Positions 11,264-62,252 of a stretch of DNA of 64,000 nt are shown piece after piece. This stretch comes from Lama guanicoe. Its lineage: Eukaryota. A program made the position numbers and the translations under genes. The first letter of the stretch is position 1, and every line of letters starts with the position of its first letter. The DNA lies in NCBI GenBank assembly GCA_013239625.1, contig MU053810.1:4992071-5056070 (forward strand), written 5' to 3'. Under the pieces are notes generated by a model. That model was given only the letters and a program-made list of their open reading frames with translations. It was not told the DNA's origin and made no database searches.

Positions 11264-11890
11264 TGTAATGGTTAACTTAAAAAATTTTTTTAAATTTTTT
11301 GCAGGGGGAGGTAATTAGGTTTACTTATTTATTTTTTTCATGGCAATACTAGGGATTGAACCCATGACCTCATGCATGCTAGGCATGCACTCTACCACTT
11401 GAGCTATACCCTCCCCCTATAATGGTTCATTTTTGTGTCAACTTGACTGGGCCATGGGGTGCCTGGATATTTGATCAAACATTATTCTGGGTGTGTCTGT
11501 AGGGGTGTTTCTGGATGAATGCGATCTCTGAATGGGTAGACTGAATAAAGCAGGTTGCCTTCCCCGATGTGGGTGGGCCTTATCCAATCAGTGGAAGGCC
11601 TGAATAGAACAACAACGCTGAGGGAGCAGGAACTCCTTTTGCCTGACTGCCTTCGAGCTAGGGCATTGTTTGTTCTTCCCTGCCTTAGAACTCAGTCTGA
11701 AACACTGGCTCTTCAAGCTGGCCAGCTTTTAGACTTCAGCTACATGATCATTCTCCCAAGTCCTCAGCTTGCCAAACTGCAGCTCTCAGGAGTTCTCAGC
11801 CTCCAAAATTGGGTGCATCTATTCCATACAATAAATCTCTCTATATATACATCCTGTTGGTTCTGTTTCTCTGGAGAACCCTGACTCATA
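11264..11890 (+). mobile_element. MLT2 (ERVL) solo LTR with a SINE inserted near its 5' end
   Basis: tgtaatggttaa..tgtcaacttgactgggcc..gtgggtgggccttatccaatcagtggaaggcctgaatagaac..ggttctgtttctctggagaaccctgact. Confidence 0.9.
11279..11416 (-). mobile_element. tRNA-derived camelid SINE (Vic-1 type)
   Basis: gggattgaacccatgacctcatgcatgctaggcatgcactctaccacttgagctataccctcccc. Imperfect TSD at 11263-11278 and 11417-11432. Confidence 0.92.
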
Positions 11891-17591: not shown

Positions 17592-18818
17592 TAACCCACA
17601 GACCTATAGTCAATTTTTAATCTTTGACACAAGGAGGCAAGAATGTAAATGGAGAAAAGACAGTATCTTCAGCAAGTAGTGTTGGGAAAGCTGGACAGCC
17701 GCATGTAAATCAATGAAGTTAGAACACTCCCTCCCACCATACACAAAAACAAACTCAAAATGGCTTAAAGACTTAAACATAAGACAAGACACCATAAACC
17801 TCCTAGAAGAGAACATAGTCAAAACATTCTCTGATATAAGTTGTAACAATGTTGTCCTAGGCCAGTCTACCAAGGCAATAGAAATAAAAGCAAAAAGGGA
17901 CCTAATTAAACTTAAAAGCTTTTACATAGCAAAGTAAACCATAAATAAAATGAAAAGATAACTTATGGAATAGGAGAAAATATTTGCCAATGCTGTGACT
18001 GACAAGGGCTTAACTTCCAGAATATAAAAACAGCTCATACAACTCAATAACAAAAAAATAAACAACCCAATCAAAAAATGAGCAGAAGACTTCAACAAAC
18101 ATTTGTCCAATTAAGACATACAAAAAGCCAACAGGCACATGAAAATATGCTTAATGTCACTGATTATTAGAGAAAAGCAAATCGAAACTACAGTGAAGTA
18201 TCCCCTCACACCAGTCAAAATGGTCATTGCTTAAAAGTCCACAAATGATAAATGCTGGAGAGGCTGCAGAGAAAAGAGAACCCTCCTACACTGTTGGTGG
18301 GAATGTAGTTTGGTGTAGCCATTATGGAAAACAGTATAGATATTCCTCAAAAAACTGAAAATAGACTTACCATAGGATCTAGCCATCCCACTTCTGGGCA
18401 CATATCTAGAAAAAAAACTATAATTTGAAAAGAGACATGCACCCCAATGTTCATAGCAGCACCATAAACAATGGCCAAGACATGGAAGCAACCTAAATGT
18501 CTATTGACAGATGACTGCATAAAGAAATTGTGATATATGTGTACAATGGAACATTACCATAAAAAAGAATAAAATAATGCTGTTTGCAGCAACATGGATA
18601 GACCTGGAGATGGTCATACTAAGTGAGGTAAGCCAGAAAGAGAAAGAAAAATACCATATGATATCACATATATGTGGAATCGAGAAAAAAAGAAAAGGAA
18701 TATATAAATACACATCTATATACACACACACATATATATGTGTATAACTGAATTACTATGCTGTACACCAGAAGTTAACAAAACATTGTAAATAGACTAT
18801 ACTTCAATTAAAAAAAAG
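17592..18818 (+). mobile_element. 5'-truncated cetartiodactyl/camelid L1 (ORF2 C-terminus + 3'UTR)
   Basis: ORF 17713-17937 gives ORF2-like [34 protein letters not shown]. Ends gctgtacaccagaagttaac..actatacttcaattaaaaaaaa. Confidence 0.95.
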
Positions 18819-36133: not shown

Positions 36134-36282
36134 TTTTTAAAATAAAATATTTTATTTAGTTTTTTTAGAGGGTGATCAGGTTTGTTTGTTTGTTTATTTA
36201 TTTAAATGGAGGTACTGGGGATTGAACCCAGGACCTTGTGCAGGCTAAGCATGCACTCTACCACTGAGCTACACCCTCCCTC
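36134..36282 (-). mobile_element. tRNA-derived camelid SINE (Vic-1 type)
   Basis: tggaggtactggggattgaacccaggacc..gctaagcatgcactctaccactgagctacaccctccc. TSD ga(c/t)tgattct. Confidence 0.92.
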
Positions 36283-41190: not shown

Positions 41191-42863
41191 TCTGAAATGA
41201 CGGGATGTTAAGATGGTCACTTTGGTTTTACAGAGCCTCATTAGATGTTAAAACAAAACCGAATGGTCTAGAGTCACAGCTGTTGATCAAATACAAGATG
41301 CGGAGCTAATTTCTTAGCAACCAAGCCTCAAATGACATACAAGAGACTCCTTTTTGAAGACCCACCTTGTTCTTTGTTGTCAATATTTCCAAAGGGAAAG
41401 TTTGAGTTGGCCTGATAAAGCCTGTATTCCGCATGTGAATAGAGTAGGTCCGGGGAACTCCTCCTGGGCGCACGTGACAACCCTAGATTTCCTTTTCCTC
41501 CTCTTCAGGAAATTCCCTTCCTTATCTGATTCTTTTTCTATAAATAGATGGAATGTGTTCGGAAGGCCATGACTAGCTTCAGATTTGGAAGGGAGGCTTT
41601 TGTGAGAAGTGGGAGTCTTTGCTATGCCTTCTCTGCCCCACTGAGCCCCTTGCCCAAGGCTGAGGGGAGGCGAGGGGCTGGCAGGTGGGAGGGATCTGCA
41701 CACGGGAGCCGGCAGCCAGCGCGCTGAGCAGAACTGAAGATGACCTAACCTCGACTCCTTCTCCAAGGAGGATTGTGATGTGCTGGAAAGAGCCCAGGAT
41801 TCAGAATCTGTCAGATCCAAGTTCCAATTTTACCCCGACTCAACTTCTCACAGCTTTATAAACTTTGGTTCCTTCATCTGTAAAATTCGCTTCTCAGTGT
41901 TGCGTTGCAATGTGGAGCAGATGTGAAATTATTTTGCAGATGACAGAACCCCTTTCCTCTCATTCTTCTCTCCTTTTTCTACTATGCATGATTATTAGTC
42001 CAAAAACCCATCTCCAAGACTCCCCCTGCAGGAGCGGCTCAGTCCAGACAACACCAGCATATGCAAGGCCCTCATGATTATCCTGTAGGACGTTCACTTA
42101 AAGGATGTGCAAAGGTCCGGTGTTCAGGGCTGGCCTAAATTACCTCCGATAATGGCTTGTTTCCTCCAGTGGCTGAATCCTATGTATCCAATCAATTTAA
42201 CAGTATTTATTAAGGCCTGTCCTGTGCTCTCAGAGGGTATAAAGGAAGAAGAAAAGAGCTTAGAATTTAGCAGAAGAAACCCAACAAGGGGATAAGTAAT
42301 GTAGAACAAACCCAAGTGACGGACTATGGACAAAAGTCTGACGTTCAGAGTGGGAGAGATGGAGCTTTGATGCCTGTGTGTGGCTCCTGTACCACAGAGT
42401 TAAGCACTTCTAGGCTAAGTGGGGTTCAGGGGGTTATATGCTGATGTGGGTCAGGGTCTGGGGTCTTCTGGGAACGTGTACATGGGCTGACTTGTTTTCA
42501 GGAGTCAGAATGCTTTCCCAGCCCAGAGCTGTTCCAGTTCAAGGTTTCTCACCTTTTCGGGGAAGAAAACAACAACAACAACAAAAAAACCCCACAAAGG
42601 TAGTTTGTGAGAGCATACAGCAACTTCGTCTCAGAACAAGTTCTTGGCCAGGCTCAGCTGCCTACTGATTTTGAAGTTTCGGTGATTTGCTAGAAGCAGG
42701 GCCTCTGTCTCAGAGCGTGAAGTCTCTCCCAGATCCTCTTCCTACCTGCCTCCCTCTGTTTTGCACAGAGAGGAGGGAGACTCGTGCATCAGCAAAATAC
42801 CTGGCACATCTCCATTACGTCTCAGAGACCTTCAGACTCTGAAAATGCAGCTAAACTCAGCTC

Positions 42864-44011
42864 AGCGCCCTCCGGTGAAGGTCATGGTCATTTGGCGTTC
42901 AACATTTTCTAGGCAGGAACTCTCTAGTTCTAGCTGATGGTCAGCAAATGCCCCTTTATTTCTCCTCTGGTGTAAGAACACCAACTTCTGCTTTTCTTTA
43001 CCACTTTCTACTGATTTGACCTACAGTAATAGCATTTCCCCTTAAGCAACCAGGGTCATCTCCCATACTGGGAATTTCCTAGTTTACATCTTAACAGAAT
43101 AAGATGGAGTGCACTTTGGGTTAAAGTCAGATACCATCCTGGCACCTTCCATTTTAGAATCTCCTATTTTCTGGCTGCTGCTTATCTCATAATGATGGAC
43201 TGGTCTGTTGGAAGTTCTGGAGAGATTCTGTCAGACCTCAAGTTTGCCCAGGCCATGAAGGTTTGAAGCCAAAACAGGGTTGCGTCGAGCGAAAAGCAAA
43301 CCAAACCTTCCTTGGTTCAGGGTTCCCTTGGCTACTGCAGTTCACACCAATGTTTTTGAGAGGGGCCCAGCTGGTAGCTCACATGGGGTTGCAAATAAGT
43401 ATTTCCTGGGATCACCATTTGTTACCACGTGGGCTCCTGCAGGGGGCCATCGCCCTGGAAGTTGCAGCAAAGCTCCTCAGCCACAGAGAAGAACTGACAG
43501 TTGGTCATGGTTGCTGTTATTAGCTGCCACTGAAGCCATGGCAACCACTGAAGGCACGGATGCTGTAGGGGCGCTGAGCGTGATGTTGGGGTGTATCTGG
43601 CCAGTGGGTGCCACCAGCATGGTCCTGCCAATGGGGCTGTTGCCTACAACAGATGTCGCCCTGATGCTGGTTCTGGGGTGGGTTCTTCTACTGCCTGGGG
43701 GTCAGCTGCCACCCAAGTCGGGCTACACATGCTGATATGCATCCTGCTTCCCGGGGCCACAGTCTCACTGTGTCCATGATGCCCAGAAATGGCCTCATGG
43801 AAGTAGGGACAGAACTTTTCGTTCACTTTCAGGCCATGAGCTCATCCTTCAGGCCAAAGTAGTGCTGCTTTATGCTCCCAGAGTGTTACAGAGACTTTTG
43901 CACAATAGCAGGACTTTCCATTTGTACTTGCTTCCCCGTCTCACCCATGAAGACCCCGCAGCTTGTTCATCAGGAGATGAACCAGTGGAAACATCTATGC
44001 CCGGGCGCCAT
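42864..44011 (-). pseudogene. MKRN-like: Decayed intronless Makorin-family (C3H zinc fingers + RING E3 ligase) pseudogene, probably an ancient retrocopy
   Basis: Minus-strand motifs occur in Makorin order across frameshifts. ATG in strong Kozak context (agcATGG, 44011-44009). KQV (43933-43925). EKFCPYFHE (43820-43794, finger 2). S/T/P/A-rich linker. EELCCNFQGDG (43478-43446, finger 3). C-N-P/C-E-L (43393-43375, cf. CDMCGL). VWFAFRS (43306-43286, cf. LSFAVQRS). YE/KQQPENRRF (43191-43157, cf. YEKANPSERRF). GI..CT/H..FC/LRC..RK (about 43135-43075, cf. GILSNCNHTYCLKCIRK). CYYCR (43034-43020, cf. CPECR). VESGKEKQKLV (43011-42979, cf. VEEKEEKQKLI). There are many stops and frameshifts and no intron-sized gaps. 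Confidence 0.8.
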
Positions 44012-45161
44012 GCTGTTTGCTCCTCCCACACTGAACCAACCTGGCGAGCACTTTCCTAGGGCAGCTTCCCTTCCTGGGACCATAAATCTATCTCCAATCC
44101 TCCCTCCAAATTCCAGCCAGAAGCACAGTTTGTAAACCCATTTTGTTGAAGCATAACAGCATGATTAATTAAAGACTTTCAAGGATAAAAGTAAATTCCA
44201 TCAGGATGAAATTTTGCGCCAAATGGAAGGTTAAAAATAAAGGACACACCATTTCCATGTATTAAGAGTTTTCATGTAATTTTTAGCAGATGCAAATGAG
44301 TATCAAATTGTCTAGATGTTTAGATTCCATCAGACACATTTCAGAGGGATGTGTACTTTTCGTCTAAGATATTAACATTCACAGTCTATTGGAATCGGCA
44401 CCCTTGGCAACCATTTAAACTTATATTGAAAAAATTTGGATGTTATCTTTTAAACAGGTGAGGAAGGGCAGAGTTTTTTAAAACTTCTTTCTTTGAGGGG
44501 GAGGTGAGCTCTGAGCAAAAAAGTCTGATAACCTTCAATTTAGCTTGTTTTGCAAAGATGTCCTAAACAAGTGAATTTTATTTCACAGGTGGTTTTTTTC
44601 ATGGATATATTTCATATTGTGTTTGTTTAAATTTGCTTTTCACTGGAAACCCTGAAGAACAACAATTGTATTAGAAAATGACGTTAATTCGATGCATCCT
44701 CTATCCTTAAGGGGCTGCTCAATCTACCATATTGGATATTGGCCTAGAGGAAGCAGAGCTCAGATTATGAATCTCTAGATGAAGGAATACACCTGGTAGG
44801 GAACCACATTAACACTTCTATTTTACAGCCTGATCTGTCTTCATTCTCTGCTGCCTGTTTCTTCTTCTGCTTTTTCATGTTTAAAAAAAAGAAAGTTGGC
44901 AAAAGTCAAGATTGGCATGGAGGATGAGTGGGAAGGGAACAGAATTAGCGAGGAATCCTTAGTCTTCCCTGTGAAGTTATTTTCATTGCCACGCCAAGGA
45001 GAGAAGAGTGAAGAAGAAATGGGGAACTTGATTATCAAGAGAACCCCTTCCTGAGTGGAAACAGAATAACTGTCCCAGGAGACACTGGTTCCTAGGCGGT
45101 GCCTTTTCCTTGAACATTTTTAACACTCCTTATCTGCTGGTTACAAGAGAGAGAGCAACCC

Positions 45162-45293
45162 TTTTTTTGTTGTTGTTTTTGGAGGGGAGGTAATTAAACC
45201 TACTATTTATTTTTGGAGGAGATGCCAGGGGTTGAACCCAGAATCTCGTGGATGCTAAGCATGTGCTCTACCACTTGAGCTATACCACCCCCC
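45162..45293 (-). mobile_element. tRNA-derived camelid SINE (Vic-1 type)
   Basis: ggggttgaacccagaatctcgtggatgctaagcatgtgctctaccacttgagctataccacccc. Confidence 0.9.
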
Positions 45294-45310
45294 GCCACGA
45301 TTCTTTCTTT

Positions 45311-45402
45311 TTTTTTTAAAATTTTTTATTGATTTATAATCATTTTACAATGTTGTGTCAAATTCCAGTGTTCAGCAAAATTTTTCAGTCATTCATGGAC
45401 GT
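45311..45402 (-). mobile_element. Very short camelid L1 3' tail abutting the SINE
   Basis: ttgatttataatcattttacaatgttgtgtcaaattccagtg. TSD a(c/t)gattcttt(c/g)ttt at 45297-45310 and 45403-45416. Confidence 0.85.
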
Positions 45403-47043
45403 ATGATTCTTTGTTTTCAGTGACTGGAAAGGGGGAAGTTTGTTTTCTCCCTTGCCCTGGTAATAAACACTAGGGTCGCCTTTAATGGTGAAAACTGGAA
45501 ATGTGGCCAGTAAGGAATTGAACTGATGCCTATGTACTTGTATTTATTTAACTCATGTTCTAAGTTACATCTACTCTGAAATTTGCGGGCAAACCTTGAG
45601 AAACTGTATTTGTTAGAGAGTGATACTGACAAGCTGACACACATTTTTACACGCATACACACACACACATCCACACATGTGTTTAGTGGGAAACGTTTAT
45701 CTTCGCTCCTTGTGCTCTGAAGATCCGCACCGCAGTCTCAAGAACAGCCCAGGTGGTTGGTTCACTTTCTACAAGCAAGCCTTTGAACACCATCGTTTAG
45801 CACCAAAATTGTCGGCTCTGTGTCGGAGAGGAAATGATCAAGGTCGCTGTCAAGTCTGTTCTTGTCAAGTCCAGCCTCCAGGTGAGGACCTGCACGCTGT
45901 CATATCGAAACACACGGAGGTGGTGACTGCACGTGCTGAGCCCTGAATAAATGTGTGTCTGTGAGCTCCCTGCCTGGGCTTCCTGGATGCCCAGCCCAGG
46001 AACCAATATTTCTTGCTCGAATGACCTAAATGTGTGTCCTCTGGTAGGTGGGCCAAAGGGAACCTGAAAGAACCACGGAGTTTCCATAGAGTCACAAGGC
46101 AAGTTCATCTCACAGCTGTCGTGGAGTCAGATGACCAGGTTGGACGCCCCTCCCCTGCTGACCCGAGCTCTGTAGTGATTAGACTGTCACCTTAGGGGAA
46201 AACCTATCGGGCCACTGGGCATCACTGTTCCCGACTCTGGGTCAGAAAGTTATGAATGCAGATTCCACATGGAGGCTGGAAATCGTTACCCGCAAAGCTC
46301 CACCTCTGAATAGCCCTGAGGTCCGTACATCAAAGCTGGCCTCTATTTGCTTGTTTTTCTTGGCCAAGTGGGAGGAGGAATGTTGGAGAGGCCAGGACCT
46401 TCCCATAGAGGAGCAGGGCCCCGACTTGGTGTGTTGATCATAATTCCTTTCGGAGCGAATTCCGCTGCAGGTCAGCTGGCTCGGGCACAAGTGTTCACAG
46501 CTGCACGAAGGGTGTGCAGGGGACATAATGGCTGCTGTGTGCGCTGGAGAACAAACAGTCCCACACAGGCCTGGGCCCGAGAAACAATGGGGCGACAAAC
46601 AGCCTTCCAAACAATGCCTTTATTTCCTGCCATAACACTGGGTGAGATGAGGCCCTGCAGGCTGGTTCCACCTGACCAAGACGGGGAGTTCATTAGGAAT
46701 GAAAGACACGTGAAAAGAGAGGTGGCAAACGTTGGGTTTTTTTTTTTTAAATCCTTCTGCAGAGCAAGATATAATTAAAACTATATTTTCTTAATGCCCA
46801 GATAAAACAGTGTGGTAAAAATACTGGAGAGGTGTTAGCAGCTATTTAAGTTTTAAGTCTTTCTGACATTAAATGTTGTGATTCACTCTCTATGCTAAAA
46901 ATATTGGCGTGAGCCACCCTGGGCTTCTCTGTTTCCCAGCAAGTCAGCTGGCTTTCCCGCAAGCTCACCTCTCCGCCCTGCCTGAGGCTGCATCCTCATG
47001 CAGGTCAAAGTCCTCCTGGGAGCTGGTTTCAGACAGCTTCCAA

Positions 47044-47065: not shown

Positions 47066-47143
<78 letters not shown>
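47044..47143. repeat. Compound microsatellite (CTAATG)3, (AAT)14, (AAC)12
   Basis: Read directly: AAT at 47066-47107, AAC at 47108-47143. Confidence 0.97.
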
Positions 47144-47144
<1 letters not shown>

Positions 47145-47510
47145 TCTCCCAAGCACTTACGGTGGAGCAGGCCCACTTTTTTTTTATGGTAATATAATGC
47201 ATATTTATTTATTTAACCTTTTTTATTGATTTATAATCATTTCACAATGTTGTGTCAAATTCCAGTGTACAGCACAATTTTCAGTTATACGTGAACATGT
47301 ATATATTCATTGTCACGTTGTTTTCTCTGTGAGCTACCGTAAGATCTTGTGTATATTTCCCTGTGCTACACAGTATCATCTTGTAATCTTCTAATTCCTA
47401 GAATCCTCATGAGAGCCCTCTGAGGTGGGGGGCCATTGTTCATCCCATTTTACAGATGAGGAAACTGAGGAATGGAGAGGTTAAGCACCTTGCCCAAGCT
47501 CATAACCTGT
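47144..47510 (-). mobile_element. MIR interrupted by a camelid L1 3' tail (about 47203-47383)
   Basis: MIR core cccattttacagatgaggaaactgagg; L1 tail ttgatttataatcatttcacaatgttgtgtcaaattccagtg. Confidence 0.8.
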
Positions 47511-61471: not shown

Positions 61472-62252
61472 AGGCTTAAAGACTTAAACATTAAGACAAG
61501 ACACTATAAACCTCCTAGAAGAAAACATAGGCAAAACATTCTCTGACATAAATCTTAGCAATGTTCTCCTAGGGCAGTCTACCCAGGCAATAGAAATAAA
61601 AGCAAAAATTAACAAATGGGACCTAATTAAACTTATAAGCTTTTGCACAGCAAAGAAAACTATAAACAAAACAAAGAGACAATCTATAGAATGGGAGAAA
61701 ATATTGGCACGTGATGCAACTGACAAGGACTTAAATTCCAGAATATACAAACAGCTCACACAGCTCAATAACAAAAAATAAACAACCCCATCAAAAAAAA
61801 TGGGCAGAAGACCTAAACAAGCAGTTCTCCAATGAAGACATACATATGGCCAATAAGCACATGAAAAATTCTCAATATCACTAATTATCAGAGAAATGTA
61901 AATCAAAATTACAATGAGGTGTCACCTCAGACCAGTCAGAATGACCATTATTCTAAAGTCCACAAATGACAAATGCTGGAGAGAGTGTGGAGAAAGGGGA
62001 ACCCTCCTACACTGCTGGTGGGAATACAGTTTAATGCAGCCAGTATGGAAAACAGTATGGAGTCTCCTTAAAAATCTAAAAATTGACTTACCATATGATC
62101 CAGCCATCCCCTCCTGGGCATGTATCTGGAGGAAACTCTAACTCAAAAAGACACATGCACCCCAATGTTCATAGCAGCACTATTTACAACAGCTAAGACA
62201 TGGAAACAACCTGAATGTCCATTGACAGAGGACTGAATAAAGAAATGTGATA

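Follow-up and report, generated by a model that had tools for sequence, protein, structure and literature searches.

A GC-rich segment with makorin-like motifs

The window, by which we mean the whole 64,000-nt stretch of Lama guanicoe DNA analysed here, contains a GC-richer segment whose minus strand carries a series of makorin-like motifs (Table 1). The GC content is 40–61% per 100 nt across 42864..44100 and drops in an abrupt step to 31–36% above 44100, in the 5′ flank. TpG and CpA are in excess in this segment, with an observed/expected ratio for TG of 1.50 against a mean of 1.22, and its TG+CA level was matched by 3 of 110 segments in a comparison set that includes segments overlapping the target. 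Because a GC step together with a TpG/CpA excess is expected of an old CpG-rich insertion, 42864..44100 is likely to be the decayed remainder of such an insertion.

The three minus-strand frames contain 22, 12 and 16 stops in 382 codons, and the longest open one in the segment is at most 74 codons. The start codon in strong Kozak context that had been pointed out in the preliminary description is present at 44011, but such a context is common (148 of the 1171 minus-strand ATGs in the window), and after 13 codons two stops follow. The near-open frame on the opposite strand is not conserved, as homologues of the segment (see below) switch frame inside it; it matched no Pfam family at cut-off and its first ORF is without a match in the ESM Atlas. 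A conserved plus-strand gene was rejected on account of this broken frame. Moreover, a coding-potential scan gave the target 10–12 bits, under the top 20 segments. The segment is an old, broken and dead sequence that shows no sign of a living gene and today would yield no protein. Among the RNA runs compared with 42500-44400, six from two studies carry 0.26–0.36 of the sampled words and eight carry <0.2; three of the six are labelled reproductive system metagenome. These word matches are no evidence of expression and may reflect DNA carry-over from a related species.

Table 1. Positions of the features in the window, with the p values of single makorin blocks
Feature	Position	Strand	Remarks
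GC-richer segment	42864..44100	-	base composition; 3′ limit undefined
ATG, strong Kozak context	44009..44011	-	A at -3, G at +4; outside all homologue matches
Antisense near-open frame	43259..44059	+	266 codons, one internal stop; longest such run of the window
Span matched by four ORF clusters	43037..43941	-	3-8 frame switches each relative to the window, mostly at different places
Weak likeness to first C3H finger	43900..43960	-	p 0.31 window only, 0.24 with homologues
Likeness to second C3H finger (CPYF ... YQH), two frames	43729..43813	-	p 0.27 window only, 0.13 with homologues
Likeness to third C3H finger and/or CH motif	43376..43499	-	third finger p 0.15 window only, 0.05 with homologues; CH 0.45 and 0.007
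FA motif before RING region	43254..43300	-	p 0.54 window only, 0.07 with homologues
RING-like region: K...RRF, C-x-H-like site, CxxCR	43020..43186	-	block p 0.16-0.79
VE...EKQKL motif	42982..43011	-	best single block of the window alone, p 0.01; no homologue coverage

Thirteen makorin-like anchors follow each other in makorin order from 43960 down to 42982, spread over three frames, with a change of frame at 7 of the 12 successive steps. The distance between the C-x-H-like Cys (43113) and the CxxCR Cys (43034) is 79 nt, compared with 78 nt in lemur MKRN1 (P0081), confirming the value of about 79 nt given earlier, and the RRF-to-VE distance is 148 nt compared with 147 nt in MKRN1. Spacing had been described as partly preserved, and this is true of 3 of the 12 anchor spacings, which lie within 3 nt of MKRN1, but the remaining 9 are off by 12–86 nt. 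A second EKQKL is present by chance at +4587, and when 234 MKRN1 words were compared with the window, 7 exact 5-residue matches were counted.

Within the RING-like region, offsets of +28 and −28 nt compensate each other and no complete C3HC4 RING can be read. Pfam gave no RING match, and the CxxC site, CYYCR in the window, is W-C at the end of the homologous ORF P0127; decay could explain the missing RING. No CCCH match of Pfam was found in the minus frames at the N-terminal C3H fingers, and a C-terminal C3H finger was not recognizable (p 0.32, in a part that no homologue covers). The third-finger and CH readings use the same DNA, and it is impossible for both to hold in full. The CH motif, given as C-x2-C-x15-H-x3-C in the accessible part of bioRxiv 10.64898/2025.12.01.691648, aligns here only with two breaks, overlapping the third-finger reading and differing from the CH alignment of the preliminary description.

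Outside the segment, Rfam gave three tRNA-like matches at 11341-11413, 36207-36278 and 45217-45289 (minus strand), which we take to be probably tRNA-derived SINEs; the one at 45217 lies amid A-rich runs. What appears by eye to be the same short AT-rich element occurs beside it at 45340-45375 and again at 47220-47260, and is probably the 3′ end of a repeat. Two similar ORF fragments at 17613-17934 and 61487-61921 have no Pfam match and presumably represent LINE-1 ORF2 3′ ends. A compound microsatellite, (AAT)14.7 followed by (AAC)12.3, is located at 47066-47144.

Makorin likeness of the window alone

Reference sequences came from a motif scan of metagenome contigs, which yielded 39 loci including one full invertebrate makorin as well as vertebrate MKRN1 and MKRN2 exons. 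The invertebrate makorin (L024:2368-3744, minus strand, on a 66-kb contig) has its first ∼430 residues in one open frame and apparently few introns. The makorin profile was built from 10 matches of an MKRN1-exon search, in which nearly all of the best 120 of 369 matches were MKRN1, and from 6 of the 39 loci, with three MKRN2 exons added later; it is without mkrn4, MKRN3 and full-length MKRN2, which limits every makorin test reported here.

Standard searches returned no significant makorin match. Pfam found no family at cut-off in the three minus and three plus frames of the segment, and 274 of the 275 window ORFs of at least 62 aa gave five weak matches, all below cut-off. Neither tblastn with invertebrate and exon makorin queries (among the matches listed) nor frameshift-aware alignment with four MKRN1 proteins was significant; thus the collinear makorin alignment by which the preliminary description proposed to judge itself was not obtained from the window alone. 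The back-translated profile and hmmsearch against the window, and a codon model compared with 78 other segments, were likewise non-significant. In word searches with two minus frames, none of the 347 candidates for one and none of the 348 for the other had an E value up to 10, and the best hit of the three minus frames among sequences of solved structures was unrelated (E 0.052). The ESM Atlas held no usable feature match for the plus-strand ORF or P0127, its structure rows all having TM <0.5 (model pLDDT 0.25), and viral-contig scans for P0125 and for a putative mkrn4-type motif found no match. The window is mammalian non-coding DNA.

We scored the segment as an ordered chain of nine makorin blocks, in bits. 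The window-only chain score of 112.9 bits (∼113) was matched by 636 of 6000 shuffled profiles and by 5 of 102 other window segments. Hence the makorin likeness of the window alone is not above chance, although the minus-strand motifs are present and in the order that had been described. Simulated MKRN1 retrocopies scored 294–408 at 0.2 and 225–308 at 0.3 substitutions per site (15 runs each) and dropped to the level of the window only at about 0.6–0.8 substitutions per site. An ordinary or recent MKRN1 retrocopy (0.2–0.3 substitutions per site) is excluded by these values, 225–408 against 113 here, and the divergence of the segment greatly exceeds that of typical processed pseudogenes, as had been supposed. 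For residues 259-394, MKRN1 rows fit slightly better (6–7 of 100 shuffles) than MKRN2 or invertebrate rows (16–77 of 100).

Homologous ORFs and neutral decay

One minus frame was searched without word filter against 1.84 billion protein representatives. Four matches were obtained with E values from 1.9e-17 to 2.8e-4 and 51–59% identity; they include neither a makorin nor any named protein. Each is an unnamed ORF on a contig from ENA or Logan, and the members within each cluster are near-identical; the four have no Pfam family at cut-off and are not matched by the makorin HMM. We think it likely, by inference, that the four clusters represent dead orthologues of the segment from other mammals. 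With four clusters only, and no long flanking repeat in 41500-45500, a provirus or multi-copy repeat was considered unlikely.

The homologues lie at about 0.3 substitutions per site from the window, in line with the ancient age that had been proposed. Identity by frame is 214/380, 131/231 and 67/128 (0.52–0.57) with no frame preference, and the value expected from neutral drift at 0.3 substitutions per site is 0.56. None of the four clusters keeps one frame with the window. Because identity is equal in the three frames and each cluster switches frame 3–8 times, the segment has decayed neutrally, and it was likely dead before the homologue-bearing lineages split. An MKRN3 orthologue was rejected since the homologues are broken. 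The named motifs, all of which are read in the window, are not shared throughout: YE reads YV in two of two homologues, the frame-0 residues under RRF differ in two of two, and the CYYCR position differs as noted for P0127.

These results bear on the suggestion that the element could still be intact elsewhere, in which case the camelid copy would be the remnant of a retrogene that was functional after the mammalian orders had split and survives in some mammals. A retrogene under fast evolution would show just such extra distance from MKRN1, PMC3022923 provides MKRN3 as a precedent, and two of the three minus frames were covered solely by the less sensitive word search. Nevertheless, frame switching in all four clusters, identity at the neutral-drift value and the lack of a named or makorin protein among the matches make survival very improbable, and no intact relative was found among the sequences searched, in which marsupials and afrotherians may not be represented.

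Makorin score with homologues added

The window and one ORF per cluster (P0122, P0127, P0124 and P0125) were combined into position-wise ancestral probabilities, which brought the chain score to 125.3 bits, compared with 112.9 before. Of 6000 column shuffles, 28 attained this score, as did 1 of 600 four-residue-word shuffles; the gain of 12.4 bits was attained by 74 of 6000 shuffles (p about 0.012), and the final score by 9 of the 763 shuffles whose window-only score matched. Each homologue singly adds 1.4–3.3 bits. The rise was present under all of several parameter sets tried, and the gain is independent of the motif choice of the preliminary description. Among simulated non-makorin ancestors, 0 of 25 reached the gain (top score 109.8), and it was reached by 4 of 20 simulated true makorins with a similar window score, giving a likelihood ratio for makorin of roughly 15. 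Blocks in permuted order reached the score in 3 of 60 and 6 of 60 cases, and the second RING block is lower with homologues (6.6 instead of 8.3 bits). Part of the gain, and the largest single one, is due to the CH alignment. The combined per-block p of 0.0007 is inflated, because the CH alignment with its two breaks overlaps the third-finger reading, and also because the target windows were set after the earlier chain result. Makorin ancestry, for which nothing was significant before, draws no more than modest support from the homologue-aided score; summed over all makorin readings we regard it as possible, at somewhat better than even odds.

The main competitor is that the likeness arose by chance, the segment being an old CpG-rich insertion with a different source: a fragment of a low-copy transposon, for instance, or a copy retroposed from some other gene, perhaps in plus-strand orientation. 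The window-only p of about 0.05–0.1, the chance recurrence of EKQKL and the majority of spacings being off all agree with this, and so does the position of the longest near-open frame of the window on the plus strand, given that the large-collection searches used minus frames. It accounts poorly for the homologue-driven gain (p about 0.012, reached by none of the 25 non-makorin controls). Furthermore, four clusters with near-identical members are unlike a multi-copy repeat, and the homologues disrupt the plus-strand frame, which has neither a Pfam nor an Atlas match. We therefore hold this explanation to be a serious one that nonetheless falls short of even odds.

Retrocopy hallmarks and possible history

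Offsets across the MKRN1 exon borders near residues 105, 182, 257 and 329 are +26, −86, +12 and +1 nt, so there is no intron-sized gap at any of the four borders, an observation that is meaningful only if the makorin homology is real. The disabled frames (12–22 stops per frame) and neutral evolution are those of a processed pseudogene. As had been noted before, neither a poly-A tail nor a target-site duplication is visible: downstream, 42870-41000 contains no A-run of at least 7, and among 20 of the 39 repeat families none is conspicuous as a flanking direct repeat. Erosion of both is expected with age.

Our favoured reading, with a probability of roughly one half, is that the segment is the relic of an intronless makorin retrocopy of MKRN1 type that had probably died by the time camelids diverged from the homologue-bearing lineages. 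The LINE-1 machinery reverse-transcribes mRNA. A makorin mRNA of MKRN1 type would have been reverse-transcribed early by this machinery, and the copy, rich in CpG, would have landed in AT-rich DNA. An effective distance from MKRN1 of about 0.45–0.6 substitutions per site would then have gathered before the lineage split, either through great age or through a spell of fast protein evolution, followed by about 0.15 substitutions per site per lineage of neutral decay. The decay is seen in the homologues; the origin and earlier history are what we infer. That the copy was functional for a time, as had been proposed, may be one among several explanations of its extra distance from MKRN1.

The parent might instead have been a more divergent makorin, namely vertebrate mkrn4 (the MKRN2 ohnologue) or MKRN2/MKRN3. 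A dead retrocopy from such a source would account for the shortened N-terminus, and great age would not be needed to explain how far the segment lies from MKRN1. In its second finger and RING flank the segment may resemble mkrn4. As an argument for mkrn4, the consulted part of PMC3022923 describes it as fast-evolving and gonad-biased in fish and frog, where it keeps its first two C3H fingers. According to the same part, however, the third finger and the CH motif, from which much of the gain found here comes, are absent from mkrn4, and mammalian forms of mkrn4 lack the first two fingers. As to MKRN2, shuffles did as well as its exons (62 of 100). The unfiltered one-frame search found no makorin at all, and no neighbour gene of the mkrn4 region, which lies beside PPARD, was recognized, the 274 window ORFs having no Pfam family at cut-off. 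A divergent parent is therefore improbable.

Two more far-reaching possibilities, which even taken jointly we consider a long shot, would give the segment a particular place in the family. It might be the trace of a fifth mammalian makorin, a fast-evolving early-therian retrogene similar to MKRN3, probably of the germ line, whose loss preceded the divergence of camelids from related lines and which is intact in marsupials or afrotherians. Alternatively, it might be the first mkrn4 retrocopy and preserve the two N-terminal fingers that have since disappeared from mkrn4 of mammals.

Comparison with known makorins and protein fossils

We found no literature report of such a camelid element, and the consulted part of PMC9024132 has nothing on the locus. 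If the segment is makorin-derived, in line with the favoured MKRN1-type retrocopy, it would be a very old addition to a retrocopy-rich family, with retroposition near the age of MKRN3, and of modest value to makorin specialists. A larger meaning would follow only if an intact orthologue exists, which would be a so far unrecognized ubiquitin ligase that binds RNA and is a relative of the puberty gene MKRN3; no result here points to one.

Host-gene protein fossils have been found in human by frameshift-aware search, 27,240 in number, of which 4,303 were new (Frith 2022, PMC9004415); in the accessible main text of that paper makorin is not named. Like those fossils, the segment is a degraded, formerly coding one (as described in that part of PMC9004415) of the sort missed by BLAST-type searches, if its makorin origin is correct, but it comes nowhere near the cut-off applied there, at which a single match is expected by chance in 10^9 bases. 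Mkrn4, or MKRNP2 (the MKRN2 ohnologue of Böhne et al. 2010), is reported in the consulted part of PMC3022923 to have variable zinc fingers besides its fast evolution and to be annotated as a pseudogene in human, and no mkrn4 retrocopy was found in that study as far as this part goes; the segment and mkrn4 are set side by side here by description, not by sequence.

MKRN3 (ZNF127) is a protein-coding, expressed and domesticated intronless MKRN1 retrogene of therians, and MKRN1 retrocopies are common in mammals, with about ten in human and six in mouse (PMC3022923, the consulted part, Table 1 for the counts). Unlike MKRN3, which is known here by description, the segment has no minus-strand open frame of more than 74 codons and is broken in its homologues too; what it would share with MKRN3, great age and a lack of introns, depends on the makorin call being correct. 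MKRN1 processed pseudogenes differ from it in that they are found by ordinary searches, whereas homology of the segment is not established. Nevertheless the segment is similar to these pseudogenes in being likely intronless and broken, in its makorin motif order, and in carrying EKQKL as MKRN1 does.
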